From: a virus
Strand: one strand, 5' to 3'
Length of the DNA: 64,000 nucleotides
IMG/VR virus record: IMGVR_UViG_3300043395_002432
Coordinates: 64,001 to 128,000 of that record
Shown in pieces: positions 1 to 63,064 of this stretch. Under the pieces are notes generated by a model, which saw only the letters and a program-made list of their open reading frames with translations, ran no database searches and had not been told where the DNA came from. Position 1 is the first letter of the stretch. Each line of letters starts with the position of its first letter. The position numbers and the translations under genes were made by a program.

Positions 1-360
1 GAGCGCATGCAGGTACGCAGAGGACACCGTGAGGATGATCGGGTTCGGCTTGCCCGCAGGCGCGTCGAACCACGAAATCGAATGCACCAAGAGGTCTCGC
101 GGCTCAAGAAGGAGCGCAGGACGAAGGCTCTGGATCGCCTCTCGAAAGGCTTTGGTGTACGCCTCGACGTCCACACCCATGAGCGAATCCTTCGCGTAGT
201 AGAGCGTCACATGCGCCCGCTCCCCGTCACTCTCGAGCGCAGGAAGGTTCCGCCACAACGAAAGCGCCTCCGAACGAAACCGCTCGTCGACGTATGACCC
301 CACGAAGACGCTGTCCTCGGGCGTCAGGCTCGCCTCAAGCAGCTCGCGGAGAAGGCGCAT
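1..360 (-). CDS. 2H-phosphoesterase family protein (Acb1/T4 gp57B-like), truncated at window start
   Basis: Not in the ORF track; translated by hand. The ATG overlaps the tube-gene stop (TGATG) and the frame stays open to base 1: MRLLRELLEAS...ERAHVTLYYAKD...WFDAPAGKPNPIILTVSSAYLHAL. First HxT motif present; the second would lie outside the window. Confidence 0.6.
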   Translation of the reverse strand, partial: MRLLRELLEASLTPEDSVFVGSYVDERFRSEALSLWRNLPALESDGERAHVTLYYAKDSLMGVDVEAYTKAFREAIQSLRPALLLEPRDLLVHSISWFDAPAGKPNPIILTVSSAYLHAL

Positions 361-854
361 CACTCACTCGGAAGGAATTGCTCAATGCTCTCGCAAGCAA
401 TCGTCAACTCCGCCACGGAGACGTCCGCCGAAGTCGCGTCCAGATCCCCACCCGGCTTCATCTCGGTCGGAAACGCCTCGTAGCACACATAGCGACGGGC
501 CTTGTTCCGATCCCACACCCCATTGGTCTTTCCGTCGCGGGGGAACTGGTAGATCGTCACGTCCGCACGATACTCGTCCCCATTCACCACGCGCATCATC
601 CAGTCGTAGAACGCCGAAGAACGCTTGGCGATCCCCTTGTTCAGCGTCACGTCCCCGACCGTGGGCGCACCTGGGTACTTCTTGGTGTACGTGTCCGTAC
701 CCTCCTTGTACTCCACGGGGTCAATCGAGATGTTCGGAATCGAGCAATTCTGAAAGCCCCCCTGAGGCTCAGTCGGCTCCATCCCATAGCCGTTATTGGT
801 GACGACCTGAAACCGATGCCCCTGCATGAGGTCGGTGGCTTGCGCTCGCGGCAT
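360..854 (-). CDS. tail tube protein (gp19-like)
   Basis: 164 aa with GGFQNCS, VEYKEG, KYPG..TVGDVTLNKG, FYDW, AFPT and DLDATS..V.VAELTIACE motifs; downstream of sheath gene. Confidence 0.9.
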   Translation of the reverse strand: MPRAQATDLMQGHRFQVVTNNGYGMEPTEPQGGFQNCSIPNISIDPVEYKEGTDTYTKKYPGAPTVGDVTLNKGIAKRSSAFYDWMMRVVNGDEYRADVTIYQFPRDGKTNGVWDRNKARRYVCYEAFPTEMKPGGDLDATSADVSVAELTIACESIEQFLPSE

Positions 855-901
855 GCGTTTCCCCTTCTCTTAGGGTTGCTTACTCGGGTACGCCAGGAAA
901 A

Positions 902-1492
902 TCACGAACTCACGACAGGGCTTACCGAAATCTCAAGAACGCCAGCACCCGTGAGCGCCACCGCAGTTGCGCCGTCCGAAGCCACCACCTTGAGCTTCCA
1001 GCCAGAAGGAACGTGCATCTCATCCTGATTGTCGAAGATCAGGATCTGATCACTCTCAACCTCCCGAAGAAGGATCTCGACCCCAGATCCCCCCCACTCC
1101 GTCTGCTCGGCGGAAGGGGACACCTCCTTCGAGACGAATCCAGGCGTGGCGTTGGTGCTGTAGAACGGGTCAGTGAAGTCCACCGCATACACACGAATCC
1201 ACGTCGCCCCAGGAAACCTCCCCATGAGGCTCGTAATCTTCCAGTGCGGCCACTTCGTGAGAGGCCAATCCGGTAGGACGTCCTTAGGCTTCACCCCCTC
1301 AAGAAAGCCGTAATTCAAGTCGACCAGCCCCCCGGTGATCGCCCCAGACCCAGCGGCAGGCCGACTCCAGAGTTTCCCACCAACAAGCGTCTGAACCACG
1401 TCGTCAGCCGCTGGGCCATACTCCGTGCCGTCCACCGTGTCGTCGACGCGGAAGCTGTAGCGAAACATGTGCGGAATCTTGCTCAACGCCAT
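902..1492 (-). CDS. hypothetical protein, probably virion structural
   Basis: 196-aa ORF with GAGG RBS, located between sheath and tube genes. Confidence 0.6.
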   Translation of the reverse strand: MALSKIPHMFRYSFRVDDTVDGTEYGPAADDVVQTLVGGKLWSRPAAGSGAITGGLVDLNYGFLEGVKPKDVLPDWPLTKWPHWKITSLMGRFPGATWIRVYAVDFTDPFYSTNATPGFVSKEVSPSAEQTEWGGSGVEILLREVESDQILIFDNQDEMHVPSGWKLKVVASDGATAVALTGAGVLEISVSPVVSS

Positions 1493-1529
1493 GTGTACCT
1501 CTCGCTCCTCATAGCCGCCTTCGCAGACG

Positions 1530-1561
1530 AAGCAAAGAAGGCAGGGTCTGCCCTGCCTCCT
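1530..1561 (-). terminator. hairpin, possible terminator
   Basis: GAAGGCAGGG-TCTG-CCCTGCCTCC, followed on the minus strand by TTCTTTGCTT. Confidence 0.45.
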
Positions 1562-1563
1562 TC

Positions 1564-1602
1564 GTGCCTTCGTGGCGTGCCTTCGTGGCGTGCCTTCGTG
1601 GC
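1564..1602. repeat. 13-bp tandem repeat x3 (GTGCCTTCGTGGC)
   Basis: Three exact copies plus partial flanking copies; intergenic. Confidence 0.9.
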
Positions 1603-1612
1603 GTGCTTGGTG

Positions 1613-1804
1613 CTACTTCTTCAGGCTGTTGATCAGCTCAATCGAGCTGGGATGCAGCAAGTAGAGCGGATCGTTCACCCCGTCGAAACGGGCGTCAATG
1701 TGCCGCGAAAGCTCACCGACCGCAATGGTCGCCGCCTGAATCGCAGCGAGCTGCTCCCGCTTGTGGGCGTCCTGAGCTGCCTTGAGTGCGTCATTGTCTG
1801 CCAT
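1613..1804 (-). CDS. small hypothetical protein
   Basis: 63 aa, GAGGAG RBS. Confidence 0.6.
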   Translation of the reverse strand: MADNDALKAAQDAHKREQLAAIQAATIAVGELSRHIDARFDGVNDPLYLLHPSSIELINSLKK

Positions 1805-1873
1805 TTGATTCTCCTCGATGCTCCTGTGGGTAACTCAGGCACCAAGATCGAGCCAACGACGAAGTCGAATTCG

Positions 1874-4252
1874 TCAGCTCGTCGAGCTGCCCGCTCCCTG
1901 CAGCCCGACGCGAGCCACGATGAACTCAGCCGCCGCATTCGGACGGAACCGAACGTCAGCCGTCAACCGACCCTGCGCCACCTCCGCTGCCGGGTTGTTG
2001 CTGTCGTTGCAGATCACCGAGTAGCCCTCCGCAGCCGACGCCCCGTAGAACCAGCCCAGGTTCCGCAGCCGCTCCATGTACGAGGTGATCTCCAACGTGA
2101 TCTGCGAGCGCAGCGCAGGAGTGTTCGGCTCAAACACCTTCGGCAGCAGGATCTGCCGCATGTTCAGCTTCACCACCGCAAGCATGCGCGCCACATGGAT
2201 CATGCCGTAGTCCCCGTTCCGCTCCATCGTGTTCGCACCAAAGACCACAGGATCTTGGTACTGCGCCAGATACCGAATCACGTTGATCTGGTGCGACCGA
2301 AGCTGCCCAGCCTCCGCGTCCGAGACCTCATACGCAAGCTGCACCACCAAGGACAACCGCCCGTCCGCCACACCGGCAGGAGCCTTCATCGCACCACGCG
2401 CAGAATCCGTCCGCGAGATCACACCAGCCGCATGGAATACCGGAGGGAGCAGCCGAGAGCGATTCGTCGCCGGATCAATCACGTACTTCCAGGGCCAGTA
2501 CATATGGCCCTCAAGCGCCTCAGGGCGGTTCACCTGACGCTTGTACGCAATCGCTTGCGTCGGCGTATACCCCGAAGGCGGGCAGATCACCGCAAACCGA
2601 TCCGTGTTCTCCCGAGCGTGACAGTAGTCCAGCAACGCCTGATCCACCGCCTTCACCCCGGTGAAGTCAGGGAAGATCACCATCAGCACCTCATTCAACC
2701 GCTCCGTCGCGTAGATGCCCTTCCGATCCGCCTGGATCGCCGTCCCGATCACCTCCGCACTGGTGATCGCGCTCCCGTCGTCCCCACCAGAGAGCCGCAA
2801 CGTCCAGGGGCTGGAGGCGTCGTTCACGGGAGCAGCGAAGTAGACCGCGCTGATCGCCCCCCCGTCCTTCACCTCCGCCTCGAACGTCAACGAGAACTCC
2901 CCCGTCGTGTAGTCAATCGTCCCCGTGCCGTCGCCAGTGAACCCACCAAAGCCGTCGTCCGTCAACGTCATGGTGCTGTCGTCCGACTCCTTCAACGCCG
3001 TGAACACCAAGGAGCCAGAGTAGACCGCATTCGAGAGCGTCCCCGCAAACTCCAGCGTCGCCCCGTCTCCAGCCAACGCCGTCCCCGCGTCGCCTGCAGC
3101 ATCCTCCTCCACCGAGACCCCTGAAAGCTCCGAAGGAACCCCAGCGTGGATCTCCGTCACCGAGAAGTACTCAGAGCCGTTCGTGGCGTCATTCAGGACG
3201 TTCACGATGTAGTTCTCGCTGTCCGTGTTGTCGGTCAGCGACACCAAGAACGTCTCCGCCACCGCCCACGAGCCGTTCGCGTCCAACACCTCCACCACCA
3301 AGTTCCACCGCGTGAACGACGCCGAATCCGCATCCTCGTAGCCCTCCAACCCAGAGAGCTTGATCCGGCAGTCATTCCCATACGCACCAACGTGATCCAT
3401 CGTCAGAAGGAAGAGCTTCTTGCGGTACACCACAGAGACCACGTAGTCGTCCGCAGGCGCATTCGAGAACGTCACCGCAAGCGCCCCGGTCGTGTAGTTG
3501 ATCGACCCCGTCGCCCCACTCTGGAGCGCGCCTTCACCGTCGTCCGTCACCGTGATCTCAGGCCCGTAGTACCGATACGTCGCCGTGATCGCCGTCGACG
3601 CCCCAGGAAGATCGCCAGTCAGGTCAATGTAGATCTCACCCGTCGTCCGGTTCAAGGTGGTGTTCTCAGGCGTCCCGTCCCCCTCAACAGAGCCGTCCGC
3701 CGCAATCGTCTGAGACTTCGCAACGCCACCAGACGTCCACTCGATCAGGACGTCCCCCGTCGTCACCCCAGGGTGCGCCAAGGTGCCAGAGAACGCCGCA
3801 TCCCCACCAGCGTCCGAATCCAGAACCTCGTCTGTCACCAAGAGCGCACGCTGGTACACGATCTCAAGACTCCCAGGGAGGATCGGCACGCCAGCCAACG
3901 TCTTGCTCCCCGTCGTGTCCGAACCATCCCCCGTCATGAGCGTCTCCGTCACCTCCGTCGAGATGTACGCAGTCGCCGCCACAGCGTCGTCAGACGCCAC
4001 CCGCACCACCACCAAGCGCGAGCCACCGTTCTGGAAGAAGACATACGCAGCCAGCGGAGCCGTCAACGTGGTGCTGAAGGTGCCAAAGACCCGCTGAAAC
4101 TCCTCCCACGAAGTGATCACCGTAGGAGTATTCAGCGGCCCCTTCGGCGTCGCCCCAATCAAGGCCAACCCCGAAGTCGAAACCGCCGTCGAGACCGCCT
4201 GGGCCAACGGTACTGTCAAGGTGCGAACGCCCGGTGTGTTCGAAGCAGGCAT
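1874..4252 (-). CDS. contractile tail sheath protein (gp18-like)
   Basis: 792 aa; TPGV N-terminus, G.TPKGP.N.P..ITSWEEF.RVFG, FFQNGG..LVVVRV, KAPAG, VFEPNTPAL, Y.VICN.SNN and P..AAEFI C-terminus. Confidence 0.95.
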   Translation of the reverse strand: MPASNTPGVRTLTVPLAQAVSTAVSTSGLALIGATPKGPLNTPTVITSWEEFQRVFGTFSTTLTAPLAAYVFFQNGGSRLVVVRVASDDAVAATAYISTEVTETLMTGDGSDTTGSKTLAGVPILPGSLEIVYQRALLVTDEVLDSDAGGDAAFSGTLAHPGVTTGDVLIEWTSGGVAKSQTIAADGSVEGDGTPENTTLNRTTGEIYIDLTGDLPGASTAITATYRYYGPEITVTDDGEGALQSGATGSINYTTGALAVTFSNAPADDYVVSVVYRKKLFLLTMDHVGAYGNDCRIKLSGLEGYEDADSASFTRWNLVVEVLDANGSWAVAETFLVSLTDNTDSENYIVNVLNDATNGSEYFSVTEIHAGVPSELSGVSVEEDAAGDAGTALAGDGATLEFAGTLSNAVYSGSLVFTALKESDDSTMTLTDDGFGGFTGDGTGTIDYTTGEFSLTFEAEVKDGGAISAVYFAAPVNDASSPWTLRLSGGDDGSAITSAEVIGTAIQADRKGIYATERLNEVLMVIFPDFTGVKAVDQALLDYCHARENTDRFAVICPPSGYTPTQAIAYKRQVNRPEALEGHMYWPWKYVIDPATNRSRLLPPVFHAAGVISRTDSARGAMKAPAGVADGRLSLVVQLAYEVSDAEAGQLRSHQINVIRYLAQYQDPVVFGANTMERNGDYGMIHVARMLAVVKLNMRQILLPKVFEPNTPALRSQITLEITSYMERLRNLGWFYGASAAEGYSVICNDSNNPAAEVAQGRLTADVRFRPNAAAEFIVARVGLQGAGSSTS

Positions 4253-9351: not shown

Positions 9352-9354
9352 TGT

Positions 9355-9813: not shown

Positions 9814-9871
9814 CTCTTATCTCCTCTTCCAGAGGTAACTCGACTATAAAGACCGGTCGAGCGCGGTGGGG

Positions 9872-11396: not shown

Positions 11397-11504
11397 TGTT
11401 CGTTCTCCTCTGTTCGCTGTAGAATCGGTCTGCTAAAAACGTGCAAGCCTCAGAAGCGAGCTTTTTCAGTCGGGAACGAATTCGAATTCGACGCACCAAC
11501 GAGA

Positions 11505-11531
11505 TGAGGAGAGGGGATCTCCCTCTCCTCA
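11505..11531. other. GC-rich hairpin between protease and capsid genes
   Basis: TGAGGAGAGGG-GATCT-CCCTCTCCTCA; no clear U-tract. Confidence 0.5.
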
Positions 11532-11556
11532 GCGTACTCTGGCTGCTCTTGGTGCC

Positions 11557-13860: not shown

Positions 13861-13902
13861 TCGTTTCCTCTCTCTTGAGCTTAGCTGCTCGAACGTGATC
13901 TG

Positions 13903-18325: not shown

Positions 18326-19249
18326 TTAGGCCGTCTTGACTTCTTCTTGACAGGATTCGTCCGCAGGAGGCGGGGGCGGATCTTCTGGTGCCGTATCCTG
18401 CATGAGCGCAGCCGAAGGAACGTACCCATTCAAGAGATCGAGAAGGACGTCCGCAGGCTCGATCCCATTCTCCTTGAATCCCCGCAGCTTCTCATGTAAG
18501 AAGGCGAATCGCTCCTCGGAAGCCACGTTGACGTAAATATGATCCTTGCCCCCGTAGGAGAACACCAAGAAGTGCGAGCCAAGCTCATTGCCGTCCGTCG
18601 TGAACACCTTCGAGATGATGTTGCTCAGATCCTCGGGGGTCTTGGCCCCTGAAGCGGCTTTGTCGAACTCTTGGAGCTTCTTGCTTCGAGTCTGCTTGTC
18701 TACGCTGTCCAGGGCTTGCTTTACGGAGAGCCGAGCAGACGACAGGAGCTTTTCATACGACTTGTCGTCGGTGATGCCCATTGCCTCCTGAAGAAGCTCC
18801 GCCGGGTGGCGAAGGATCAGATCCATGTAGAGCTTCGAGAATTTCTCGGGACTCACCCTGCCGTGGATGAGGTTGAGCCTCATGGTGATCAGGTTGCGAA
18901 GATCCTTGCAGGCTTGGTCGTTGCCCGCGATCTTGGGATCGTGAATGATCATGGCGGGTATGGTCGTGTGGCCAAGCGAAGCGCACGCACGCATGCGATG
19001 CTCGCCACCAATGAGCTGGAACGTCCCATGTGGGGTCGGCCATACCTGAATAGGGGCGATCATCCCAACCTCTTGAATCTCCTTCACCAAGCGAGCGAAC
19101 TCACGCTCGTTCATCGTGTTCGGATTCAGGGGATTCTTCTCGATCTTGGCGATCTCAAGAGCAGGATTGAAGTCGAGCGTATGGTGCGACGAAGTCGACT
19201 TCGCTGCCGTCGTTGCCAGAGCTTCTTGCGGATACATGACGTCGGACAT
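18326..19249 (-). CDS. ParB/Srx-like N-terminal domain protein
   Basis: NPLNPNTM...F..L...I...G...PI.V...FQLIGGEHR.RA...LG. Confidence 0.85.
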   Translation of the reverse strand: MSDVMYPQEALATTAAKSTSSHHTLDFNPALEIAKIEKNPLNPNTMNEREFARLVKEIQEVGMIAPIQVWPTPHGTFQLIGGEHRMRACASLGHTTIPAMIIHDPKIAGNDQACKDLRNLITMRLNLIHGRVSPEKFSKLYMDLILRHPAELLQEAMGITDDKSYEKLLSSARLSVKQALDSVDKQTRSKKLQEFDKAASGAKTPEDLSNIISKVFTTDGNELGSHFLVFSYGGKDHIYVNVASEERFAFLHEKLRGFKENGIEPADVLLDLLNGYVPSAALMQDTAPEDPPPPPADESCQEEVKTA

Positions 19250-19258: not shown

Positions 19259-19615
19259 TTAGCGTTTCTTTCCCTGGTTCTCTTCAAGCCAGAGACGACC
19301 CCGCTCAGTCAGGATCGCCCACTCGATCTTGCGCGGGCCAGAAGACGAAGGACGCTCTTCGATCCGCACCAAGCCACGACGCTCGAGAGAGAAGTACGTC
19401 GACCGATCATTGAACCCGTCGTTGTAGCCAGCCGAGATCAGCGCAACCTCTCCCCGTGAAGCCACGCGCTGAAGCGCCGTCCGCTGATTGTACCCAAGTG
19501 GTTTGGTGGTGACATCCACAAGCCCCCCACGAGCCATGTCGTCAAACAGCGGATCGGTCTCGGAAGAAGCCATGCCATAGTCTAACCGAAGACTTTGCAG
19601 GCTGTTTGCAATCAC
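19259..19615 (-). CDS. hypothetical protein, possibly winged-helix
   Basis: SLERRGLV...LTERG motif. Confidence 0.5.
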   Translation of the reverse strand: MIANSLQSLRLDYGMASSETDPLFDDMARGGLVDVTTKPLGYNQRTALQRVASRGEVALISAGYNDGFNDRSTYFSLERRGLVRIEERPSSSGPRKIEWAILTERGRLWLEENQGKKR

Positions 19616-21048
19616 TCACCAAAGAGTCCGACCTGCGCTTGACGAGGCTTCGGCTTCGTGGCTTCGTCGTAGCGGGGCCGCTGCGGAAGCCCCTGAACCT
19701 CACGGGAGGCGTAGTCGCACCGACCGTAAATGACGGACTCCATCGCGGGATCTCGCTCAATGAGGGTGATCGACTGGCGATTCAGGACGGCAGCCACGCC
19801 CGTGGTGCCAGAGCCTGCAAACGGATCGAGGATCTCGCCACCGGGGGCCGTGATGAGGTTCAGGCACCAACGCATCAGCTCCACAGGCTTCACAGAGACA
19901 TGCGGATTCCAACGCTCGGTCTTGGTGCCGTCCGAATTGTCGAAGACCTTGAGCGGGGGCAGATGCTGCAAACCCAGATCCTTCTCCTCCAGGGTCGGCT
20001 TCGGGCAGTAGACGAAGCCGTCGTGATCCGTCCATTGGTGGTTGTTGAAGCGCATGCTCTCCGCCGAGAGCGGATCAGCGAACGGGTCGACCTGCCCATG
20101 CATCGCAAGCACAGGACAGCCCACGACGCACTTGGTGGAGGTGCATTCGAATGCGTGCGTCATGACCACGTTCGCCGGAAACCGCCCCATGTCGTAGCTC
20201 TGAGCAGGAAGCGAGCGATACTCCCCATGCGCGTTCGAATCGAGCAGCTTGCGCTTCCCTGAAGCCGTCACTCGCGCCCCCTCGGAGCCGATCCGGCAGG
20301 ACTTGATGTTGAAGCCCCCCGTCCCCCACTTCAGCATGTTCTCCGCAATGGTCGCCTCACTGATCGGCTTCTGCACCACTGAGATCGGCTCGGTCGCAGG
20401 CTTCAGCCCTGAATGCCAATCCTCGAAACGCTTGCCCTCCTCAGAAGCGGGGTGAAGGCGACGGAAGACGCGACTCTCCCCGTCCCCGTATCCTACGCTC
20501 GCCGTAGGATTGAGCAGCTTGGTGTGATCCCTTCCAGCCCCCCGATTCGACAGCTCCCCCTCACGGGAGCTGACACCAAGGTGGTCGTCGATGGCAAGCC
20601 CTATATTGAGACCCCGAGGCATCCCGGTCGCGTAGTGCCAAGTGATCATGCCGCGCTGCTGGAATCCCGCAAGACGAAGCGCCATCCCCATGAGGTCGAA
20701 CGTGCGCGTCCCAGAGAAGGTCAGCAGGTAGCCCCCAGGACGAAGGACGCGAAAGCACTCGTACCAGAAATCTGGCCCAGGCACCCAGGCATCCCACTCC
20801 TTCCCCCCGATCCCGCTCTTAGGCTTGGTGCGCGTCGCTGGCCCCGTGTACCGCTCCCCTCGAGCCTCCGCCTCCAGCACCAAGCGAAGCCACTCGCTCC
20901 ACTCCAGAAGCACCTGACGCTGCATCCGCTCCTGCTCCTCCGCAGAGGAGAGACCATACGGAGCATCCGTCACAATGGCGTGGTAGTAGTTGTCGGGGAT
21001 TTGGCGAAGGTACGCGAGGGAATCACCAATGTGTATCCTGGGAATCAT
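19612..21048 (-). CDS. DNA N6A/N4C methyltransferase (beta class)
   Basis: IHIGDSL, IVTDAPY, RVLRPGG, LKPA.EPI, H.SVKP..LM, ILDPFAGSGTTG. Confidence 0.9.
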   Translation of the reverse strand: MIPRIHIGDSLAYLRQIPDNYYHAIVTDAPYGLSSAEEQERMQRQVLLEWSEWLRLVLEAEARGERYTGPATRTKPKSGIGGKEWDAWVPGPDFWYECFRVLRPGGYLLTFSGTRTFDLMGMALRLAGFQQRGMITWHYATGMPRGLNIGLAIDDHLGVSSREGELSNRGAGRDHTKLLNPTASVGYGDGESRVFRRLHPASEEGKRFEDWHSGLKPATEPISVVQKPISEATIAENMLKWGTGGFNIKSCRIGSEGARVTASGKRKLLDSNAHGEYRSLPAQSYDMGRFPANVVMTHAFECTSTKCVVGCPVLAMHGQVDPFADPLSAESMRFNNHQWTDHDGFVYCPKPTLEEKDLGLQHLPPLKVFDNSDGTKTERWNPHVSVKPVELMRWCLNLITAPGGEILDPFAGSGTTGVAAVLNRQSITLIERDPAMESVIYGRCDYASREVQGLPQRPRYDEATKPKPRQAQVGLFGE

Positions 21049-30750: not shown

Positions 30751-32196
30751 TCACTTCTTCTTCGCCGCCTTCGCAGCAGCACGCGACTCAGCCTCCGTAC
30801 TCACCAAGTCCATGCCCGCAAAGCGAACCTTGAACGCACGCTCCGCCAACTTGCGATTCGAAGGATCAGCACGAAGCCATACCTTCGCCTCGTCCTGATT
30901 GCGGAACGTCACGTCCTCCATGCCAATCCCGTCAAGATGCAGAACCAACTTGCCAGGAAGGGACTCCATCACCGCACACGACGACTTCAAGATCAACTTG
31001 AAGAAATTGTCGAAGTCCTCAATCTCCCCAGCACGCCACCCATCCATGTCCACCAACCGCTGAGCGTACCGTGCCTTCCGATTCGCAGGAGCGAACTTGT
31101 TCTTGGTGACCGTTACCCCAACCTCAATACGATACGCAATCTCCGCCACGTCCGCATCCCTGATCCCAGATCCAGCCCACCTCGGATCTTCCATCCGCTC
31201 CACCTTCGAAGCAGACAAATCCACAATCAACGCAGCCGCGAACAACTGCCCCTTCCCCCCACTCATCGTCCGAGGATCGCCAAACGCAATCCCAATCTTG
31301 TCACGCCACTGCTGAATCCAGATCGACGTCACAGGACGACCACGAAGCGATGCCATGTTGGTGCATTGCCCAACCACACGGAACATGCGGTTGAGGAGAC
31401 GCGCATGCACGCCCATCATCGACTTGTCCGCAGACTCCTGAACCTCAATGTCAGGCGACATGGCAGCAAGCGAATCCACAATCACCATGTCCACCAAGCC
31501 ACTGTTGATCAGCTCAGTGTAGATGTTCGTCACTTGCTCAGCCGAAGGCGGAATCACACGGTACATCGTCCTCGCATACGCAAAACGATTCACCCACGCC
31601 GCGTCGAACGTCCCCTCCACGTCGATCACCGCCACATTGAACGGACGATACGAATTCGCCAGCAGCTCCTCATGCAGCGCCTGCCACTCCGCAAAGCCCT
31701 TCGCCTTCGGATCAGGACGAGGCCCAAGCGGATGCCGAATCACCTTCTGCGCGTAACAGTCGCACGACCCCACCAACGCCCACGTCGCCTCCTCCTCAGG
31801 ATCGTCCGCAGGAATGTCCACCTCCTGCACGTCCACAGCAGGCCGATAGCACCGCGAACACAGAAGCTGACCCTGCCCAGCAGTCCGCCAAGCCGTCAAC
31901 GACTTGCCACTCGACTGCGTCCCCACCAAGATCGTCCCATGCCCAACAGGGATGCCAGCCGTCCCATCCCCATTCACACCAACCGCCAGATCCAGCTCGA
32001 AACACCCCGTCGAGATCCGACGAACATTCATCGACGTCGGCTGGTGGATCGTCGCAACCCCCGTCTGCCCATTGATCCGACTCGTCAACTTCCGAAGCTC
32101 ACCAGCCGACGATAGAGCCGCAGATCGCAACGCCTGGATCGACGGCTCCACCAACGAAGTCGAATTCGTTTCCTCTTGAGCCTGCTTGAATGCCAT
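30751..32196 (-). CDS. recA: RecA/UvsX recombinase with Cys-rich insertion
   Basis: ISTG..ELDLA.G..GIP.G, GTQSSGKS, IDVEG.FD, VIVDSLAAM, MG..ARL, Q.RDKIG..FGDP....GG, KNKFAP. Confidence 0.93.
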   Translation of the reverse strand: MAFKQAQEETNSTSLVEPSIQALRSAALSSAGELRKLTSRINGQTGVATIHQPTSMNVRRISTGCFELDLAVGVNGDGTAGIPVGHGTILVGTQSSGKSLTAWRTAGQGQLLCSRCYRPAVDVQEVDIPADDPEEEATWALVGSCDCYAQKVIRHPLGPRPDPKAKGFAEWQALHEELLANSYRPFNVAVIDVEGTFDAAWVNRFAYARTMYRVIPPSAEQVTNIYTELINSGLVDMVIVDSLAAMSPDIEVQESADKSMMGVHARLLNRMFRVVGQCTNMASLRGRPVTSIWIQQWRDKIGIAFGDPRTMSGGKGQLFAAALIVDLSASKVERMEDPRWAGSGIRDADVAEIAYRIEVGVTVTKNKFAPANRKARYAQRLVDMDGWRAGEIEDFDNFFKLILKSSCAVMESLPGKLVLHLDGIGMEDVTFRNQDEAKVWLRADPSNRKLAERAFKVRFAGMDLVSTEAESRAAAKAAKKK

Positions 32197-33451: not shown

Positions 33452-35122
33452 TCAGCCCCCGGATCGCACCACAGGAGGACGCTTGACGTAGCGCGCCAGC
33501 TCCGAGAGCGATCCATCCTGCGGTAAGCTCTGACGCGCACCAATGGAGTTGTAGAACTCGATCCGCCGAACCGCCTTCCGCATGAAGCGCGTGTTCGTCT
33601 GCACCATGTCCACGACGACCGGATCAGGCTTGCCCGTACACGTCCCAGCCCGCCACGGACACCGCTCGCCACACTTCTTGGTGGGAGGACAGTGACGACG
33701 AATCCGCCCCACCATCTGCTCCACGTCGCTGAACGGCATGCAGAGGATCATGGTGTCAAGCGACTGGTTGTTATACCCCTCCTCGATCATCTGCTTGGTA
33801 GACAAGATGATCTGACAGTTATTGAACACCTCCAGCTCTTGCTCCGTCACCGCACGCTTCTTGAGCGTCTCCTCCTTGTAGATCGGCTGCTTGGTGTCAG
33901 GATCGAACTCAGGCCGCTGCCCCGTCGCCCAGCCCACCGTGATCTGCGAGAGCCACCGACGTGAAGCGTCCCCCTGCTCCAGCGCCTTCGTCGCCCACTC
34001 CTTCTCCTCCTGAAGGTAGCCCCAGAAAAGCGTAAGCTGCTCGATCCGCGTCGACAGCAGCATGACCTTCCGCCCCAACGCAGCCGCCTTCAATGCCTCA
34101 GCCACACAGCTCCGGTTGTGATGCTCGTTCTGCGCGATGATGTTGTCCACTTCCGCCGAATTTGCGTTCTCAGGGTCAATCCACTTGCCCCACTTCCGAA
34201 AGAAGGGAATCTCCCCCGCGTTCACGAATTTCACAATGGGCCGTCGACTCTCGGTCTTAGCCGCGTACCCAATCTCCCCGAAGTTATCCAAGAAGGCCCG
34301 CTCGCAGCCGTCCTTCCGCCGAGGGGTAGCTGTCAACGCCAGCCGGTAGGCTGCGCTGAATTTCGGAACCACGATGCTGAACGTGTCAGATCCCGTCCGG
34401 TGTGCCTCGTCCACGACGACCGTACCGAAGTACGAATACACTTCCTCTGGATATTGTCTCTGCGAAAGGGAATGGATCATCCCGATCACAATGTCCTTCC
34501 CCTTGTAGTCACAGACCGGCCCCTGAATCTTGCCGATCTTCGCCCCCGGAAGGAAGGTCTGAATCTCCTCCTTCCACTGCTTCATGAAGAACTCCTTGTT
34601 GACGACCACCAAAGCGGTACGCCCAAGTCGATAGATCGCACGAAGCGACGAGGCGGTCTTGCCGAAGGCGCAGGAGGCTTTCAGGATCGACCCGCCCCAA
34701 GGCTTGTCCTCCAAACCCTGACATTCCGCAGGCAAATGCCCCTCGCGCACCTTGCTGTACTGCCCCATCTTGACGAGGATCTGATCAATGGCCCTCGGCT
34801 GCTCCTCGTAAGGAGCCTGATCCGACCCACGAAAGCCCCCCGCAATGCATTCGGCGCTTAGCGCCTCTCCCCGAGAGACCTCGAGGATCTCTTGGTGCGG
34901 AGCCGTCTTGTTCCGAGCGTACCACATGCGCGGGACGTAGATCGCCTCGTCGTCCTCCCGGTAGAGCTTCAGCGGCCCTCGCGCCTCCCCTATGTCGCTC
35001 GTCGACTGAGGCTGGATCGTGAGGTTGCCCCGAATCACCAAGAGCGCGTCCTCTTTCAATCCGTCAGCAGCCCCAGCCCCATGCTTCGGGAGCCGCACCA
35101 TAGAACCGATCCTGACCTGCAT
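33452..35122 (-). CDS. superfamily 2 helicase (UvsW/ResIII-like)
   Basis: CAFGKT, VVDEAH, LTATP.RKDG, EG...LDT, EQMVGRI.R. Confidence 0.9.
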   Translation of the reverse strand: MQVRIGSMVRLPKHGAGAADGLKEDALLVIRGNLTIQPQSTSDIGEARGPLKLYREDDEAIYVPRMWYARNKTAPHQEILEVSRGEALSAECIAGGFRGSDQAPYEEQPRAIDQILVKMGQYSKVREGHLPAECQGLEDKPWGGSILKASCAFGKTASSLRAIYRLGRTALVVVNKEFFMKQWKEEIQTFLPGAKIGKIQGPVCDYKGKDIVIGMIHSLSQRQYPEEVYSYFGTVVVDEAHRTGSDTFSIVVPKFSAAYRLALTATPRRKDGCERAFLDNFGEIGYAAKTESRRPIVKFVNAGEIPFFRKWGKWIDPENANSAEVDNIIAQNEHHNRSCVAEALKAAALGRKVMLLSTRIEQLTLFWGYLQEEKEWATKALEQGDASRRWLSQITVGWATGQRPEFDPDTKQPIYKEETLKKRAVTEQELEVFNNCQIILSTKQMIEEGYNNQSLDTMILCMPFSDVEQMVGRIRRHCPPTKKCGERCPWRAGTCTGKPDPVVVDMVQTNTRFMRKAVRRIEFYNSIGARQSLPQDGSLSELARYVKRPPVVRSGG

Positions 35123-35216
35123 CCGATCCCCCAACGAGCGAGAGGCTTGAGAAACGCATTCGAATGCGTTCCCCAAGCCCCTTTATCCCGAACTCACCAA
35201 GAGGCGAGTTTCGCCC

Positions 35217-36410: not shown

Positions 36411-37565
36411 TCAGAGCTGGATCGTCGCCCGACGCACCCCAGCCTCCAGCGGAAACTCCGAATCGCGCACCAAGCGGAGACGCTCGTTCAGCACGTCCAC
36501 ATGCTCTTGGTGCATCTCCCCTGGATCTTTCACCCCCGGCGGGAGCAGGATCGTGATCAGCGCACGCCCAGGCTCATTGAATCGAAGGAAGTTGTCCACC
36601 TCCCGGTTCATCCCCCGACCCGCGTCGTCCTGATCCCCCATTGTCGCAAGCGGCATCGTTGGTGCAATCCGAGCCGAGATCTTCCGAATCTGACTCCACG
36701 CAGGGTGCGCCCCCATGATCGCCAACGGGGAAGCCTCCAGCCCCAAGCTCAGCGGTCGAAGGACGTCGAGGAAGCCCTCCACGAAGATCGGGATCGCATT
36801 CGCCTTGTAGTAACGCTCCCCGTACAGAAGGATCGACTTCTCCATCCCAGGAGTATGGTAGTACTTCGGATGATTGTGACCGCAACGCTTACACACGCTA
36901 AGCGGCTTCTCAAGCGTAGCGTCGCACCGCTCACAGATGCATGACGTCCTGTAGCTCCGCGCCGAAATCCCATGCACGACCCCAAGCTGATCTCGAATCG
37001 GGAAGATCGCACGCTGACGACGACGATCCGTCATCACCCCAAACCACGCAAGAACGTCAGGAGAGATCCCCCGATCCACCAAGTACTGCGGCACCTCATC
37101 GTCATACGACTGAAGCTCGTCCATTGAGAACGACGAATTCGACTTCGGTCGATACGACGTCTCCGTTGGTGCCACATGCGGTCGAACCACCGGCTCGAAC
37201 TTCACACGCTCCAGCGCATGATTCGACGACACCCACCGCAACGAACTCAGCCGCGAGAGGTTGAAGGGATCTTCCTCTCCCCGATCCTCCTGCCGCTCTT
37301 GCACATGCGAAAGGAGATCCCAAAAACGCTCGCCAAGCTGGTGCGCGAAGTACATCACCAGCCCTTCGAGCTTCCCCGTATGCCCGCAGCCAAGGCAGCA
37401 ATAACCAGGGATCGTCCCCGGAGGAGACTCCAAGACCGCAAACGAAGGCGACCGGTCGTCATGGAACGGACAGCAAGCCAACACCTTCTTCGCTTTGACC
37501 TTCACCTCCTTCAGGCCGAGCTGGTGCAGGACGAGCGCAATCGCCTCCGGGCTGGTGTTCATCAT
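36411..37565 (-). CDS. dnaG: DnaG-type primase
   Basis: CPFHDD.SPSF...C.GC Zn finger, YL.DRGI, R.IFPI, KY, IFVEG.LD, GDQDDAG TOPRIM, KDP. Confidence 0.9.
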   Translation of the reverse strand: MMNTSPEAIALVLHQLGLKEVKVKAKKVLACCPFHDDRSPSFAVLESPPGTIPGYCCLGCGHTGKLEGLVMYFAHQLGERFWDLLSHVQERQEDRGEEDPFNLSRLSSLRWVSSNHALERVKFEPVVRPHVAPTETSYRPKSNSSFSMDELQSYDDEVPQYLVDRGISPDVLAWFGVMTDRRRQRAIFPIRDQLGVVHGISARSYRTSCICERCDATLEKPLSVCKRCGHNHPKYYHTPGMEKSILLYGERYYKANAIPIFVEGFLDVLRPLSLGLEASPLAIMGAHPAWSQIRKISARIAPTMPLATMGDQDDAGRGMNREVDNFLRFNEPGRALITILLPPGVKDPGEMHQEHVDVLNERLRLVRDSEFPLEAGVRRATIQL

Positions 37566-38083
37566 GAGAGAAGCCACATGAGCGAACCCTGCACCAAGCT
37601 CCACAGGAGGCTCGAGAGGACGATAAAGCCAGCCCGCTGCATCTGCGTCCGCCCCTCCACCGAGACGAACTCCACGATGAAGGTCGAGAACTCGATCTGC
37701 CGCGCCTGAAGCCGAAGCCAGAGCGAGATCGGCCCCTCTTGCCCGTTCAGACGGAAGACCCGGTGCGAGAGCGTCCGCTCCCAGAAGAAGCCAAGCGCCA
37801 CCTGAAGCGGGATCGTCGCCAGCGTAGGAGCGATGGCAATCCCCCCGAGGAGGAGGGCAAGGAGCCGAACGAGCGCCACCTTGGTGTGGTAGCCGTACAG
37901 CACAGAGGGCCGATCCTCGATCTTGTCAGGATTGACCTCGGCCTCCCCCTCGGGAACCAGATCCGGTAGAAGGAATGCTTGAACATTCACCTCCTCAGGA
38001 CGGTAGAGAAGGTAGACCCCGATCTGCACCAAGGTCACAACGAGCATGAGAAGGATCGTTTCCATGCCCCAATGATAGCGCAC
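37562..38083 (-). CDS. membrane protein
   Basis: Three to four hydrophobic segments; start uncertain. Confidence 0.55.
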   Translation of the reverse strand: MRYHWGMETILLMLVVTLVQIGVYLLYRPEEVNVQAFLLPDLVPEGEAEVNPDKIEDRPSVLYGYHTKVALVRLLALLLGGIAIAPTLATIPLQVALGFFWERTLSHRVFRLNGQEGPISLWLRLQARQIEFSTFIVEFVSVEGRTQMQRAGFIVLSSLLWSLVQGSLMWLLS

Positions 38084-38533: not shown

Positions 38534-39195
38534 TTCCTACTCCTTACGCGCTGAACGATCCCGAAGTGCGTCCGTCTCCCGTGCGCCGGGGCAACCCCGA
38601 TCCCCTCCCCCTCCGTCGCTAACGGGATCGGAAAGAACCTAAGCCACGGTCGGCTCCCGAAAGAGATAGGATCGAGGACGTCCTCCGTCCGTAAAAAGCT
38701 CGCAAAGCCCCACCTCGGCTTATCGCCGTCTAACGTGTAGATTTGATAAATCGCCCCAGGGTACAAAACCGTTGGAAGCGGACTTACCCAACAGAACTTG
38801 AACTCGTTGACCGCATACGCCGTCTGCCCAAGCGAATGCTGTATCCAGAACCGCTCCTCGTCTTGCGGCTTGTACATCTTGGTGCGACGAGGACGACCAG
38901 CCGCAGGATCTCGAATCGGAAGGTACGGAGCCGTTGGATTCTCCGCGATCAGCTCTGCCTGCATTCGCACCAACGCCTGAAGGAGCGCACGCCCTTCCGG
39001 CCCCTCGGGAACAACAAGCTCTACCTTCTCGGGAGGCGCACCCTCGATCTCGTCGACATGCCCCCTCCGCTTCTTCTCTCTCTTTTCCGCACGCTGTTCT
39101 GCGAGTTTCCGATGTTGCTCCGCAATCCTCCGCGACCGCGCCCCTTCCCTCGTCGCTTCCTTCTCGGTCGCTTCCTTCTCGACCCTGCGCCTCAC
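38518..39195 (-). CDS. hypothetical protein
   Basis: ORF; start uncertain, near the upstream MTase stop. Confidence 0.45.
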   Translation of the reverse strand: MRRRVEKEATEKEATREGARSRRIAEQHRKLAEQRAEKREKKRRGHVDEIEGAPPEKVELVVPEGPEGRALLQALVRMQAELIAENPTAPYLPIRDPAAGRPRRTKMYKPQDEERFWIQHSLGQTAYAVNEFKFCWVSPLPTVLYPGAIYQIYTLDGDKPRWGFASFLRTEDVLDPISFGSRPWLRFFPIPLATEGEGIGVAPAHGRRTHFGIVQRVRSRKCGKK

Positions 39196-39899
39196 TCCAC
39201 ACCCCCCATGAATGCCCGCAGCAGATCCTCTGCCTTCTCGATGCGGGACGCGTCCGAATCGAACCCAATGTAGCGACGCTTGGTGCGGTGACACGCACGA
39301 GCCAACGGCCCAAGCCCAGAAAAGATGTCCACCACCAAGTCCCCTGGCTCCGTCCACCGCTCGATCCACTGAGCCATCCAATCCGTGGGCTTCTCGGAAT
39401 GCTGCCGCCGCTGCGAAGCATGACCATTGCGAAGCGCACCAAAGTGGTTCGTGAGATGCACCCCCTTGGTGTAGAGCAACACAAGCTCAGCCGCACCAAG
39501 CCAATGATGCCCAACGCCGCCACCGTCCTTCACCCACGCACCTCCAGAGACGTAGCGCCACTTCAGGTCGTGTGACTCATGGAACCACCGCTCGAGAAGC
39601 GGAAACGTCGCCCACATGGCCAGCCGAACCCCACGCTCCTTGGTGCGCTCCTCAGGAAAAGCAGCATGCACGCGATTCAACGCACGCACGATGTCGCCCA
39701 TGCTCATGTTCGCGTAGTGCTTCTCGATCTCCGCCACGTCGGCCCGACCGTAGAGACCCCCCTCATACGTCCACGGCGGATCAGCCACCACCAAAGAGGC
39801 GTCCGCGATGCAAGCGAAGTCGACTTCGTTGACGTCCCCCTGGACGAAGCGAATCTCAGGGGGAAGGGCTGTGGGCTTCAGATCAGGGAAGAGCTGCAT
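39192..39899 (-). CDS. adenine methyltransferase (MT-A70-like/beta class)
   Basis: VVADPPW.Y, HY..M, L.MWAT.P.L, W.K, E..L...KG, HSEKP, VVDIFSG.G. Confidence 0.85.
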   Translation of the reverse strand: MQLFPDLKPTALPPEIRFVQGDVNEVDFACIADASLVVADPPWTYEGGLYGRADVAEIEKHYANMSMGDIVRALNRVHAAFPEERTKERGVRLAMWATFPLLERWFHESHDLKWRYVSGGAWVKDGGGVGHHWLGAAELVLLYTKGVHLTNHFGALRNGHASQRRQHSEKPTDWMAQWIERWTEPGDLVVDIFSGLGPLARACHRTKRRYIGFDSDASRIEKAEDLLRAFMGGVE

Positions 39900-61298: not shown

Positions 61299-61360
61299 GG
61301 CTCTCTCCCTCTTGGTGGCTTTAGTCGAGGATGTCGGCGCGGGCAACGAATTCGAATTCG

Positions 61361-61831
61361 TCAAACGAGATCAGCGTAGAGAGCTTCTCGCTGCTCTTTG
61401 GTGCCGTACATGTGGACGAACTCGTCAATGGTCAGATCTGACCTACGTCCGAGACCCTCGACCCGCATGCGGTACGTCATGGGGTCGATCTTCCTTGCCT
61501 TCGGGCAGCGAATGACCATGTCGACCGCCGTAGCGATCTGCGCCTCTGTTGGATTCCGACCGAAGCGAATGTTGTAGGCGTTGGTGACACGCGCCCACCC
61601 CTGAAGGTAGAGGAAGGCATCTGCTGGCCCTCCATGCTTGCGGTACGCCTCTCCGTCCGCATGCTTCCCGCGTAGGTACCGCTCGGCCCACTCGTTATGC
61701 ACCTCCCCACCAAGAGAGACCCACTCCCCAGACGGCTTGAGCCAAGCCGCCGAGGTGTAGTGAGGCGTGCAAGCATGAGCGATCTCCCACTCCGCGAAGG
61801 CTTCGCTCAAGACTTGGTGCAAGAGGCGCAT
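61361..61831 (-). CDS. putative internal virion protein
   Basis: Leader MRLLHQVLSE; WL.P.G.....H...A...L..GW.RV motif. Confidence 0.6.
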   Translation of the reverse strand: MRLLHQVLSEAFAEWEIAHACTPHYTSAAWLKPSGEWVSLGGEVHNEWAERYLRGKHADGEAYRKHGGPADAFLYLQGWARVTNAYNIRFGRNPTEAQIATAVDMVIRCPKARKIDPMTYRMRVEGLGRRSDLTIDEFVHMYGTKEQREALYADLV

Positions 61832-61835
61832 GGGA

Positions 61836-62816
61836 TCAGTGGGTACGGACTTCGTACTTGCCGATCTTGAGGTAGACGCTCAGGCTCAGCCCCTTGATCT
61901 GCTCGTCCATGTAAATCACATACCCATCGGGCCGAGGATCAACAGACGAGATCGTGACGTCCATCTCGTCCTTCGCGCCATACCCGAGCTTGCTCTTGAG
62001 GTGCTTCTCAGCCAGCGTCATGGCCATGTCCTGCATGGCCTTCATGAAGGGGGCGTCAATCGGGATCGTGCCAGAGCTGACCTCGTCCGACCCCTCCTGC
62101 ATCTGCGACGCAGGCGTCCCGCGCTTCTCAGGCTCGGAGGGATCGCGGTACTGATACTGGTTGCCGACCGCAACGCGCTTCAGCCCGGTCAGGATCTTCA
62201 CCTTGCCATCTTCACCAGCGATCAGGTGGGCAACGACATGCTCGTCAGCGCCCCGCTCTGACGCCTCGAACGTGGCGACCGCGTCGTAGATGAGCTGGGT
62301 GACCTTAGACACCACGCCGCTCCCGAGATCGATCTTCTTCCCGAGCTTCTTGTACGCATCGCGGATCGCCTTCTCAACATTGGGCCAGCTTTCCGACGCC
62401 TTATCCTTCGGGAAGAGGGTCACCTCTCCGTAAAGGTTCTTCTTGGCGTCGCTCACTACGATGAGCTTGGCGTTGTACGCCTTGCCGTCCTCGAGATCGA
62501 AGTTCAGCATGACGTTCAGATCCGGCCCCTGGCCCGGAGCGAGCTTCGCCTCATTCAAGCCCTCGCGGATCGTGCGCCGGTCGACGACCTTGGGCTTCCC
62601 GCCGTTGGAGGGATGCTTCAAGGTGCGAGCGGCTGCCAGGGGAGCGCCCCCGTCGTCGGGGAAGAAGGCTCGGTCGCCGTTGCTCAAGGTGCGCCACACC
62701 CCGACCTTGCCTTCGTACTCCCACTTGCCGTCCCCAAGCTCCTTCGAGCGGGCCTCATCCACCACCTTGCAGCCACAGTCGCTCTCTGACAGCAAGGACG
62801 CAATCGACTTCGCCAT
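61836..62816 (-). CDS. putative internal virion multidomain protein
   Basis: Leader MAKSIASLLSE; internal LNE, FE and MQE junctions. Confidence 0.6.
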   Translation of the reverse strand: MAKSIASLLSESDCGCKVVDEARSKELGDGKWEYEGKVGVWRTLSNGDRAFFPDDGGAPLAAARTLKHPSNGGKPKVVDRRTIREGLNEAKLAPGQGPDLNVMLNFDLEDGKAYNAKLIVVSDAKKNLYGEVTLFPKDKASESWPNVEKAIRDAYKKLGKKIDLGSGVVSKVTQLIYDAVATFEASERGADEHVVAHLIAGEDGKVKILTGLKRVAVGNQYQYRDPSEPEKRGTPASQMQEGSDEVSSGTIPIDAPFMKAMQDMAMTLAEKHLKSKLGYGAKDEMDVTISSVDPRPDGYVIYMDEQIKGLSLSVYLKIGKYEVRTH

Positions 62817-62839
62817 TGTCTACTCCTTCTCTGGGAGCC

Positions 62840-63064
62840 TTAGACTGGAGAAGGCTTTGCAGCAACCCTTCGAAAGAAGTCCGTCAATTCACGCATGCGA
62901 TGAATCCCTTTCAGCTCTGTGAGTGAGGGGATCTTGCATTCCGCGTGTGCCAAGATGCCAGAAGCACCAAGGATCATGTACTCAAGCCCGCTTTGGTGCA
63001 GGTAGAGCTTCATGGGGACGACGGCGGCGTCCTCAGAGTGAAAGCGCCACGCCTCAAGGCTCAC
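62840..63064 (-). CDS. hypothetical protein
   Basis: 74 aa, GTGA overlap. Confidence 0.5.
   Translation of the reverse strand: MSLEAWRFHSEDAAVVPMKLYLHQSGLEYMILGASGILAHAECKIPSLTELKGIHRMRELTDFFRRVAAKPSPV

Follow-up and report, generated by a model that had tools for sequence, protein, structure and literature searches.

An asymmetric heptamer densely written into both strands of a T4-like freshwater phage genome, and its candidate readers

We analysed a 64,000-nucleotide stretch of viral DNA (the window), comprising bases 64001-128000 of one 139,496-bp virus record, IMGVR_UViG_3300043395_002432, in which the heptamer CACCAAG, or CTTGGTG when read on the opposite strand, is dispersed in very large numbers. 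This enrichment is real and striking, and it represents selection that acts at the level of the DNA, independently of coding. Over-representation on both strands had already been proposed in an earlier annotation made from the sequence alone (hereafter the first-pass annotation), and it proved to be stronger than had been stated there: the window holds 186 exact copies, as against 6.40 ± 2.33 in dinucleotide-preserving shuffles, the largest of which yielded 13 copies, with none of 100 reaching 186. The 19 copies previously listed for the first 7 kb (14 on the + strand and 5 on the - strand) were reproduced by an exact recount, and the similar density that had been noted across the window extends to the record as a whole, with 21-35 copies per 10-kb bin throughout. 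In all, the record carries 413 copies (246 on + and 167 on -), i.e., one per 338 bp, and CACCAAG/CTTGGTG is its most frequent heptamer.

Genes were delimited with our own heuristic, which relies on G+C content at third codon positions (GC3) and codon scores rather than on annotation; it yields 183 genes that occupy 89% of the record, and 177 of these lie on the - strand. The 14,936 bases of the record that are intergenic in this model contain 40 copies of the heptamer, 20 per strand, whereas a first-order Markov model predicts 1.45 ± 1.19 (largest value 6 in 200 runs), which corresponds to a 28-fold excess. The density of the word is 2.68 per kb in intergenic and 2.99 per kb in coding DNA. All 12 positions that had been called intergenic in the first-pass annotation also lie between genes in our model (Table 1).

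Within genes, we counted 370 copies. When synonymous codons were shuffled within each gene, a procedure that keeps every protein and each gene's codon usage, 46.8 ± 6.2 copies were expected (largest value 63 in 300 shuffles), and shuffling of codon order lowered the expectation to 24.0 ± 5.1. The heptamer occurs in all six combinations of frame and strand, the most used being xxC-TTG-GTG (150 copies), xxC-ACC-AAG (109 copies) and CTT-GGT-G (68 copies). Leu-Val is written TTG-GTG in 196 of 342 cases (57%), with 24.4 expected from codon use, and Thr-Lys is written ACC-AAG in 115 of 166 cases, with 54.0 expected. By its own criterion, the first-pass annotation would have been refuted had the excess vanished once Leu-Val and Thr-Lys dicodon use was controlled for. 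The enrichment remains after the codon shuffle, and it also persists with the dicodons held fixed, in that TTG-GTG is preceded by a codon ending in C in 150 of 196 instances and ACC-AAG by a C in 109 of 115. A preceding C is thus present in 77-95% of cases against a background of ~34% (33.6% of all third codon positions are C), a 2.3-2.8-fold excess. Because the word exceeds its frequency in synonymous shuffles, occurs in spacers, occupies all frames and is accompanied by a forced preceding C, we conclude that its enrichment reflects selection on the DNA itself; the separate, asymmetric motif system that had been postulated has passed codon, dicodon and composition controls alike. Protein sequence, too, has been altered in places, since Thr-Lys dipeptides number 166 against 96.2 expected from amino-acid frequencies, or 1.7-fold. 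With one copy per 338 bp, a 28-fold excess in spacers and 57% of Leu-Val pairs recoded, this is among the densest asymmetric DNA words known to us, and it sits in a phage without a cultured relative.

The boundaries of the word were established by comparing it with its neighbours in sequence space. Single changes at positions 1-6 give unenriched words (0.2-1.1-fold; e.g., CACCGAG 1.1-fold and CACCAGG 0.2-fold), and the three forms with another first base, A/G/T-ACCAA, are depleted to 0.3-0.5-fold. Among the 64 hexamers of the form CACNNN, CACCAA alone is enriched (5.7-fold). Position 7 is looser, with CACCAAG at 8.2-fold and CACCAAC and CACCAAT at 3.3-fold each, and a form with an extra A, CACCAAAG, is 12.8-fold enriched, a G coming next after 57 of the 73 occurrences of CACCAAA. 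The strict core is therefore CACCAA, which on the other strand reads TTGGTG and consists of G and T throughout, with tolerance at one end. The flanks of the copies carry at most 0.25 bit (the maximum being at +1), the copies in spacers reading gCACCAAGa with G at -1 in 22 of 40 and A at +1 in 25 of 40. The full word CTTGGTG is short and asymmetric, being composed of three G, three T, one C and no A.

Copies of the heptamer are spaced more evenly along the record than chance would place them. The coefficient of variation (CV) of the gaps is 0.86, below the first percentile of random placement (0.891), gaps of less than 50 bp number 23 against 56.8 expected, and no motif-free island exists, the largest gap being 1,692 bp. 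This repulsion depends on orientation. Pairs of copies in the same orientation are scarce both below 50 bp (7 observed, 27.1 expected) and below 100 bp (28 observed, 58.7 expected), whereas pairs in opposite orientation are closer to expectation at both distances (16 against 25.3 and 45 against 54.8, respectively). When positions were kept and orientation labels permuted, 28 of the 73 pairs closer than 100 bp were in the same orientation, with 37.8 expected (P = 0.013), and 7 of the 23 pairs closer than 50 bp, with 11.8 expected (P = 0.035). The commoner orientation, CACCAAG on + (n=246), is regular by itself (CV 0.80 against a random first percentile of 0.873; largest gap 2,033 bp), and the rarer one (n=167) resembles a random scatter, with a CV of 0.97 and a largest gap of 4,465 bp. 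No large orientation domains and no orientation switch are visible along the record. We interpret the copies as two signal sets, one on each strand, that are largely independent of each other, the strand-specific part of this statement having moderate statistical support. That same-strand copies avoid each other and opposite-strand copies barely do so points to a reader that acts on one strand, and one-strand reading is the best class of explanation for the data. Some enzyme must read the word, most likely in the course of DNA replication or in the protection of DNA ends.

The record that bears the word (61.0% G+C, classed as linear, with a completeness of ~68% estimated by CheckV) encodes a T4-type virion module, in which Pfam recognizes a Gp23 major capsid protein (MCP), a Gp20 portal, a tail sheath and a prohead protease, together with a baseplate protein and a tail tube. 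Its replication and repair set, likewise named by Pfam, consists of a DnaG-type primase, a ResIII helicase, a RecA-like protein, a beta clamp, ThyX and a DnaB-like helicase; a class II ribonucleotide reductase is also encoded. The best matches of the MCP in a phage collection are only ~25% identical, and the lineage is therefore distant from cultured phages; we take it to be an uncultured freshwater T4-like phage. Exact peptide words of the MCP retrieved no close relative in IMG/VR, and a protein search produced relatives at 87%, 44%, 42% and ~33% identity only, of which the first sits on a 3.3-kb contig.

We then asked where else the word is found. A set of 161 relative loci was assembled from 160 loci encoding MCP relatives, obtained in profile-based scans (23-54% identity in the best segment, often partial; the nearest full-length relative at 42%), and the first 50 kb of Actinomycetia phage DSL-LC01. 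In none of the 161 loci was the word enriched, the highest density being 0.96 copies per kb in a 5-kb locus, and none had a comparable word of its own. Phage DSL-LC01, whose sole gene in common with the record is that for the ribonucleotide reductase, has 7 copies in 50 kb. One metagenome contig in the set (locus L006; 12.4 kb, MCP 30% identical) contains GCACCAA 15 times against 2.1 expected, dispersed and on both strands; CACCAA overall is only 2.8-fold enriched there, inside the tail of the control loci, and the same contig carries a 16-base palindrome, GCGAACACGTGTTCGC, at four places. Judged from these counts, a related and weaker word may exist in this sister lineage. Scans of bacterial genomes and of IMG/VR for triplets of copies on one strand, spaced 100-130 bp from each other, gave at least 120 loci in each case, and no two-strand, genome-wide enrichment was seen among the matches listed; the denser of these were one-strand arrays or tandem repeats, and the rest were sparse. 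These scans are insensitive, with fewer than one match expected per enriched 140-kb genome, so that they amount to a weak negative.

Possible hosts were surveyed in the same manner. Across 401 genomes of Actinomycetota, the word reaches at most 0.41 copies per kb, the maximum being in G343; the 401 include 15 unpublished genomes (G225, G106, G279, G496, G331, G153, G344, G123, G441, G253, G187, G373, G423, G448 and G193), G343 not being one of them. A Limnohabitans genome, one of five counted after the scan matches, contained the word 4.5 times as often as its reversed control. In 101 genomes of the same family, the density is at most 0.67 per kb and the ratio to the reversed control rises to ~8, TTG being a major Leu codon in these genomes. 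The word was rejected as special in this family, given that 298.5 kb of coding sequence from five of the genomes held 156 copies as compared with ~105 in synonymous shuffles (1.49-fold), which ranks it 203 of 8,067 heptamers. Among the sampled genomes of Actinomycetota and of the Limnohabitans family, other phyla being unsampled, we thus found no host for which the word is special, and the trait follows the phage rather than any sampled host. A full-text literature search for the whole word, as CACCAAG or CTTGGTG, returned unrelated papers only.

As to the reader, we tentatively suggest that the heptamer is where the DnaG-type primase encoded by the phage itself prefers to start, a candidate that the first-pass annotation had left out and that fits the grammar of the word at least as well as those it had put forward. 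The same genome that contains the word encodes a primase of the DnaG family (Table 1), whose members combine a zinc-binding with a TOPRIM catalytic domain; its residues 42-369 align with Aquifex aeolicus DnaG (2au3, E 1.8e-7) and with the catalytic cores of E. coli DnaG. Primases of the DnaG type, such as those of E. coli, T4 and T7, start on a template trinucleotide whose 3' base is required yet uncopied, and they begin the primer with a purine triphosphate. As described in PMC2910064, the T7 primase makes pppAC on 5'-GTC-3' and needs G or T next, its sites GGGTC, TGGTC and GTGTC directing pppACCC, pppACCA and pppACAC, respectively, from templates in which G and T predominate. The heptamer can be parsed in like fashion as CT + TGGT + G, that is, as the four copied bases of the T7 TGGTC site, another cryptic base and two further template bases. 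On a reading of the sequence alone, an end in 5'-..GTG-3' is compatible with a cryptic G followed by pppAC, as for T7 GTC.

From a word whose enrichment, boundaries and spacing are observed, and from a primase gene that is likewise observed, we infer the following scheme. The lagging-strand template would read 5'-CTTGGTG-3', with the 3' G serving as the cryptic base that is recognised and left uncopied. The next template bases, T and G, would specify pppAC, the G/T run would extend this to pppACCAA, and a final G would complete the primer pppACCAAG. The strict end of the word would then correspond to the cryptic base plus the 5' part of the primer, and the loose end to the primer 3' end. Chance alone would place a 6-7-base site on a strand only about once in 15-20 kb, too rarely for lagging-strand synthesis. 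Such a primase would therefore need an enriched genome, and spacer DNA, the choice of synonymous codons and, in some cases, the amino acids themselves would have been rewritten to provide one site per 0.6-0.8 kb per strand.

The commoner orientation (246 of 413 copies) is that in which CTTGGTG lies on the - (sense) strand. If replication forks move with transcription, as we assume, the - strand is the lagging-strand template, and the regular orientation places CTTGGTG on it. The density of the word, 1.2-1.8 sites per kb per strand, is of the same order as that of the T7 primase words (~4). The sites of the T7 gene 4 primase and the heptamer are further alike in being G/T-rich template words with a possible cryptic 3' base and, for the heptamer, a predicted primer that begins pppAC and continues with CA, as T7's pppACCA does (PMC2910064). 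In both cases, primase and helicase machinery is encoded in the phage, and sites occur on both strands at roughly kilobase spacing.

Several points speak against a primase as the reader. The sites known for DnaG-type primases comprise 3-5 bases, arise often enough by chance and need no genome-wide enrichment, whereas the word described here has 6-7 bases fixed and is 8- to 28-fold enriched; in T7, the known words stand at chance level, with 161 and 159 copies, close to the Markov-3 expectation. In the phage record, CACCA followed by another base is unenriched (CACCAC 1.2-fold, CACCAG 1.0-fold), and the reader must therefore check all 6-7 bases, beyond known primases, a specificity for which simple rules of copying do not account. 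To our knowledge, no DnaG-family primase needs more than 4-5 template bases, and we know of none that has shaped a genome. A cryptic G, such as this word would have, is used ~100-fold worse by the T7 primase, according to PMC2910064. In addition, the direction of replication is assumed, the orientation-specific spacing rests on P values of ~0.01-0.03, and the record is ~68% complete, so that the third that is missing may encode further candidate readers. Finally, the arguments from grammar, i.e., the G/T-rich strand, the tolerance at the 5' end of CTTGGTG and the presence of TGGTG, fit a Chi-like signal nearly as well.

A phage enzyme that does read a long word is the primase-polymerase of NrS-1, which recognizes 5'-TTTGGTTA-3' and 5'-GTG-3' in the account given in PMC8718748. 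Its word is G/T-rich and 8 bases long, has TTTGGT in common with the variant CTTTGGTG found here, and GTG is also the 3' end of CTTGGTG. Unlike the primase of the phage record, however, the NrS-1 enzyme belongs to the archaeo-eukaryotic primase family, no domain of which was found in this ~68% complete record, and its long word is thought, in the same account, to mark an origin rather than to fill a genome. A wider form of the primase proposal, which we hold to be unlikely, is that of a private replication code, in which the phage primase, or some other phage enzyme of replication or repair that reads one strand, would act only at a 6-7-base word that is rare elsewhere. Were this so, hundreds of positions would have been changed so that each strand carries the word at Okazaki-fragment spacing, and the phage enzymes would serve phage DNA and ignore that of the host; it would be a first instance both of a DnaG-family primase with a long word and of a primase that shapes codon choice genome-wide. 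If the start-site reading in its simple form is true, the three-base view of DnaG-type primases would change, and the direction of replication would become predictable from sequence.

A second explanation, doubtful as well but hardly less likely in our view than the primase start site, is that CTTGGTG is a Chi-like signal on the 3'-ended strand for a helicase-nuclease, either one of the RecBCD/AddAB type from the host or one encoded by the phage. On meeting the signal, the enzyme would turn from degrading DNA to promoting recombination, and broken or unpackaged phage ends would be spared within ~1 kb and fed into recombination-dependent replication. The statistics of the word are like those of a Chi or of a primase word, yet it departs from defining features of ordinary members of both families, in site length on the one hand and in the traits of the Chi-rich phage class on the other. 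As is characteristic of a Chi site, it is a short, asymmetric, G-rich word read in one orientation. Chi-rich phages are documented in Zheng et al. 2025 (PMC12315714), namely LLS with 23 sites (one per 1.86 kb), P1 with 50 (one per 1.9 kb) and MD8 with 32; Chi is the commonest octamer of these three and compensates for a missing recombination module. Like theirs, the word in the phage record is a short, asymmetric, G/T-rich top k-mer (the most frequent heptamer) that exceeds codon expectation and is read in one direction. CTTGGTG is G or T at six of its seven positions and has TGGTG in common with E. coli Chi, GCTGGTGG, and the candidate Proteobacterial Chi variants presented in bioRxiv 10.1101/2020.08.13.249359 include GCTGGCGG and GGTGGTGG. 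The strand-specific spacing, too, is as expected if each orientation is a separate signal. T4-like phages package DNA by a headful mechanism, and a genome packaged in this way would need both orientations. The extreme anti-restriction tuning of the genome, described below, would also fit with a benefit from surviving restriction breaks.

Against a Chi-like signal, the density of the word is ~5.5 times that in any of the Chi-rich phages of PMC12315714, and Chi in the phages treated there is almost one-way and clustered near one end, whereas here the split is 60:40 (246:167) and the spread uniform. Phages with recombination genes of their own are, in the same source, mostly without Chi, and the present record, ~68% complete, does encode a RecA/UvsX-like protein and a ResIII helicase, for which "UvsW-like" is a label of our own. 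Chi sites are enriched in the host chromosome, with a bias to its leading strand, and among the bacterial genomes sampled none was found in which the word has special status, the Limnohabitans-family coding sequence standing at 1.49-fold and rank 203 of 8,067. If true, a Chi reading would reveal the Chi of a freshwater host and an extreme case of the Chi-rich phage strategy. The first-pass annotation had supported its Chi-like proposal with RecA, resolvases and an exonuclease; the RecA gene is present (Table 1), but no resolvases or exonuclease were found in Pfam scans. Of the two functions that it proposed, the Chi-like signal stands as a serious contender, given TGGTG, the existence of Chi-rich phages and the same-strand repulsion, and the methylase target is without support.

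That methylase proposal belongs to a class of explanations in which the word is a mark in double-stranded DNA, either the target of one of four phage methyltransferases or the site of a DNA-binding protein that coats or organises the genome; we consider this class improbable. Both methyltransferases that had been noted in the window are real, with matches to N6_N4_Mtase, and the record holds two more, three being of the N6_N4 class and one of the Dam class (Table 1). The catalytic motifs of the 478-aa enzyme, DAPY close to the N-terminus and FxGxG at about residue 410, are separated by ~300 residues, enough for recognition of a long asymmetric site, and its full-length homologues are at most 43% identical. 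The word has adenines on one strand only, which is typical of sites methylated on one strand; Type III sites have adenine on one strand and are methylated on that strand alone. Two of the enzymes show weak likeness to those with short sites, the 361-aa protein to M.MboIIA (E 3.3e-6) and both large ones to M.RsrI and CcrM. Protective methylation, however, gives no reason to multiply a target, so that an extra benefit must be invented, and the word is not a palindrome and has a G/T-rich strand without adenine. A mark in the duplex predicts equal repulsion between copies in the same and in opposite orientations, which is not what we observed, and tolerance of the inserted A of CACCAAAG, which is 12.8-fold enriched, is not to be expected of a reader that is exact over seven base pairs. 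IMG/VR contained no close relative of either large methylase. A profile of the family of the 478-aa enzyme retrieved 80 viral loci, 952.5 kb in all, with homologues at 28-37% identity, whose specificity may well differ; the heptamer did not exceed 0.95 copies per kb in these loci, nor did they contain a comparable word of another kind.

The first-pass annotation had drawn an analogy with HIP1, GCGATCGC, of cyanobacteria. HIP1 is likewise a hyper-abundant short word of comparable density that occurs in genes and spacers of genomes with orphan methylases. It is a palindrome of cellular genomes, and its function is still obscure; the word described here, in contrast, is asymmetric, is not its own reverse complement, and is strand-specific in a phage. 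The HIP1 core CGATCG is absent from the phage (0 copies, 59 expected).

We think it very unlikely that the word is a self-recognition tag of the kind represented by DNA uptake sequences, read by a packaging motor or by a tag-sparing phage nuclease to tell phage from host DNA. Its statistics do resemble those of the uptake sequences in Haemophilus and Neisseria, with occurrence on both strands in coding and non-coding DNA, preferred coding frames, a density on the order of one copy in each kilobase, and gaps more regular than in random placement; no motif-free island exists (largest gap 1,692 bp). The uptake signal sequences of Haemophilus and the DNA uptake sequences of Neisseria, however, belong to naturally transformable bacteria, where a competence receptor reads them, comprise 9-12 bases with flanking structure and preferences, and act in either orientation, whereas the present word is found in a phage genome, has 7 bases with nearly uninformative flanks (at most 0.25 bit) and is spaced in an orientation-specific manner. 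In addition, we know of no sequence-directed packaging of this kind for T4-like terminases. It is scarcely credible that the word is without function, as a by-product of extreme word avoidance (34 of 64 hexamer palindromes are at ≤2 copies, which distorts codon-pair choice) or of biased mutation or repair that converts near-matches (one-step neighbours A/G/T-ACCAA stand at 0.3-0.5-fold, as such a drive predicts), given that a by-product cannot yield 28-fold non-coding enrichment, an exact 7-base boundary or even, strand-specific spacing, a drive predicts random spacing, and the depletion of neighbours is equally expected under selection. The rest of the probability goes to readers not yet thought of.

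Table 1. Positions of the heptamer copies and of genes discussed in the text; coordinates refer to the window or to the whole record, as indicated.
Feature	Coordinates	Strand	Basis or remark
Heptamer, 186 dispersed copies	window 85..62971	both (105 CACCAAG and 81 CTTGGTG on +)	exact match count
Intergenic copy of CACCAAG (example)	window 1840..1846	+	intergenic in gene model
Other intergenic copies (starts)	window 1606(-), 4371, 11548(-), 30692, 32208(-), 33125, 33273, 35195, 53254, 55185, 57735(-)	as marked	gene model
DnaG-type primase, 397 aa, putative reader	window 36411..37604	-	CHC2 zinc finger, E 2.4e-8
DnaB-like helicase	record 134391-135728		Pfam
RecA/UvsX-like recombinase, 481 aa	window 30751..32196	-	Pfam RecA, E 1.5e-27
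ResIII/DEAD helicase, 560 aa	window 33452..35134	-	ResIII E 2.5e-18; SNF2-related and DEAD domains
Large beta-class N6/N4 DNA methyltransferase, 478 aa	window 19612..21048	-	N6_N4_Mtase E 3e-20
Small beta-class N6/N4 DNA methyltransferase, 235 aa	window 39192..39899	-	N6_N4_Mtase E 7.8e-12
N6_N4-class methyltransferase, 361 aa	record 8747-9832	-	Pfam
Dam-class methyltransferase	record 131837-132799	-	E 1e-22 to DpnM and E. coli Dam
ParB N-terminal domain protein, 307 aa	window 18326..19249	-	ParB_N E 9.3e-12; two genes from large methylase
Class II ribonucleotide reductase, 969 aa	window 49762-52671	-	
Fused Hen1-like/Pnkp-ligase-like protein, 871 aa	record 127330-129945	-	
RNA ligase	record 1132-2271	-	
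tRNA gene cluster, 25 genes	record 10468-17113		ARAGORN; outside window

The genome of the phage is also marked by avoidance of short palindromes. In the 139.5 kb of the record, 34 of the 64 hexamer palindromes are present at ≤2 copies, as compared with 20-90 expected from synonymous shuffles, and 32 are absent from the window. Examples are CGCGCG (0 against 93), GAGCTC (0 against 78), GGCGCC (1 against 70), CGATCG (0 against 59) and GGATCC (0 against 51). Likewise, CTAG, GRGCYC and GWGCWC do not occur, and GGWCC occurs once (378 expected). The palindromes that are spared comprise all four NTCGAN, TGATCA, AGATCT, GCATGC and GAATTC, which suggests protection by the phage's own methylases. GATC reaches 1,693 copies (one in every 82 bp), a 1.6-fold enrichment, and GAATTC 157 copies, a 3.5-fold one. 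A further palindrome, CGAATTCG, has 118 copies in the record and 51 in the window, and 56 of the 118 fall within the intergenic 11% of the record. It often appears as overlapping pairs, CGAATTCGAATTCG, beside gene ends (window 1866, 4323, 8590/8596, 11477/11483, 15909/15915, 21628/21634 and 30675/30681, among others). It looks like a regulatory or terminator-like element and is probably the motif system that the first-pass annotation had counted as the first.

DNA near-identical to the analysed stretch is present in freshwater or riverine metagenomes, with 24 runs listed that derive from 20 studies, and in the four runs compared, strains were 90-97% identical to it. Of the 40 strain differences listed out of 941, none lay inside a heptamer copy against ~0.9 expected, a comparison without power. 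Between window positions 9000 and 28999, two of the runs differed by 559 and 484 substitutions, and short segments were replaced at 13101-13192 and 17784-17860. Most large proteins of the record were left unnamed by Pfam and PHROGs, and nothing that pointed to a host emerged when the ESM Atlas was searched with the beta clamp. No WhiB, Mre11-like, Rad50-like, family-B polymerase or Prim-Pol domains were found in the ~68% complete record, where absences mean little.

The class II ribonucleotide reductase is 57.6% identical to its homologue in phage DSL-LC01. It aligns to actinophage homologues in two pieces that together cover 71% of its length, and an inserted element, such as an intein, is therefore suggested by the alignment. 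Among the 25 clustered tRNA genes, two of which have odd anticodon loops, are a tRNA-Leu(CAA), reading the TTG codon imposed by the heptamer on 196 Leu-Val pairs, and a tRNA-Lys(CTT) for AAG. The record also encodes an RNA repair set, consisting of the fused Hen1-like/Pnkp-ligase-like protein and a separate RNA ligase (Table 1), which suggests a defence against host tRNA-cleaving nucleases. Finally, codon use is odd for a genome of 61% G+C, with GGG as the top Gly codon (1,289 of 2,990) and CTC and CTT common for Leu, probably as a side effect of the avoidance of GGCC, CCGG and CGCG.

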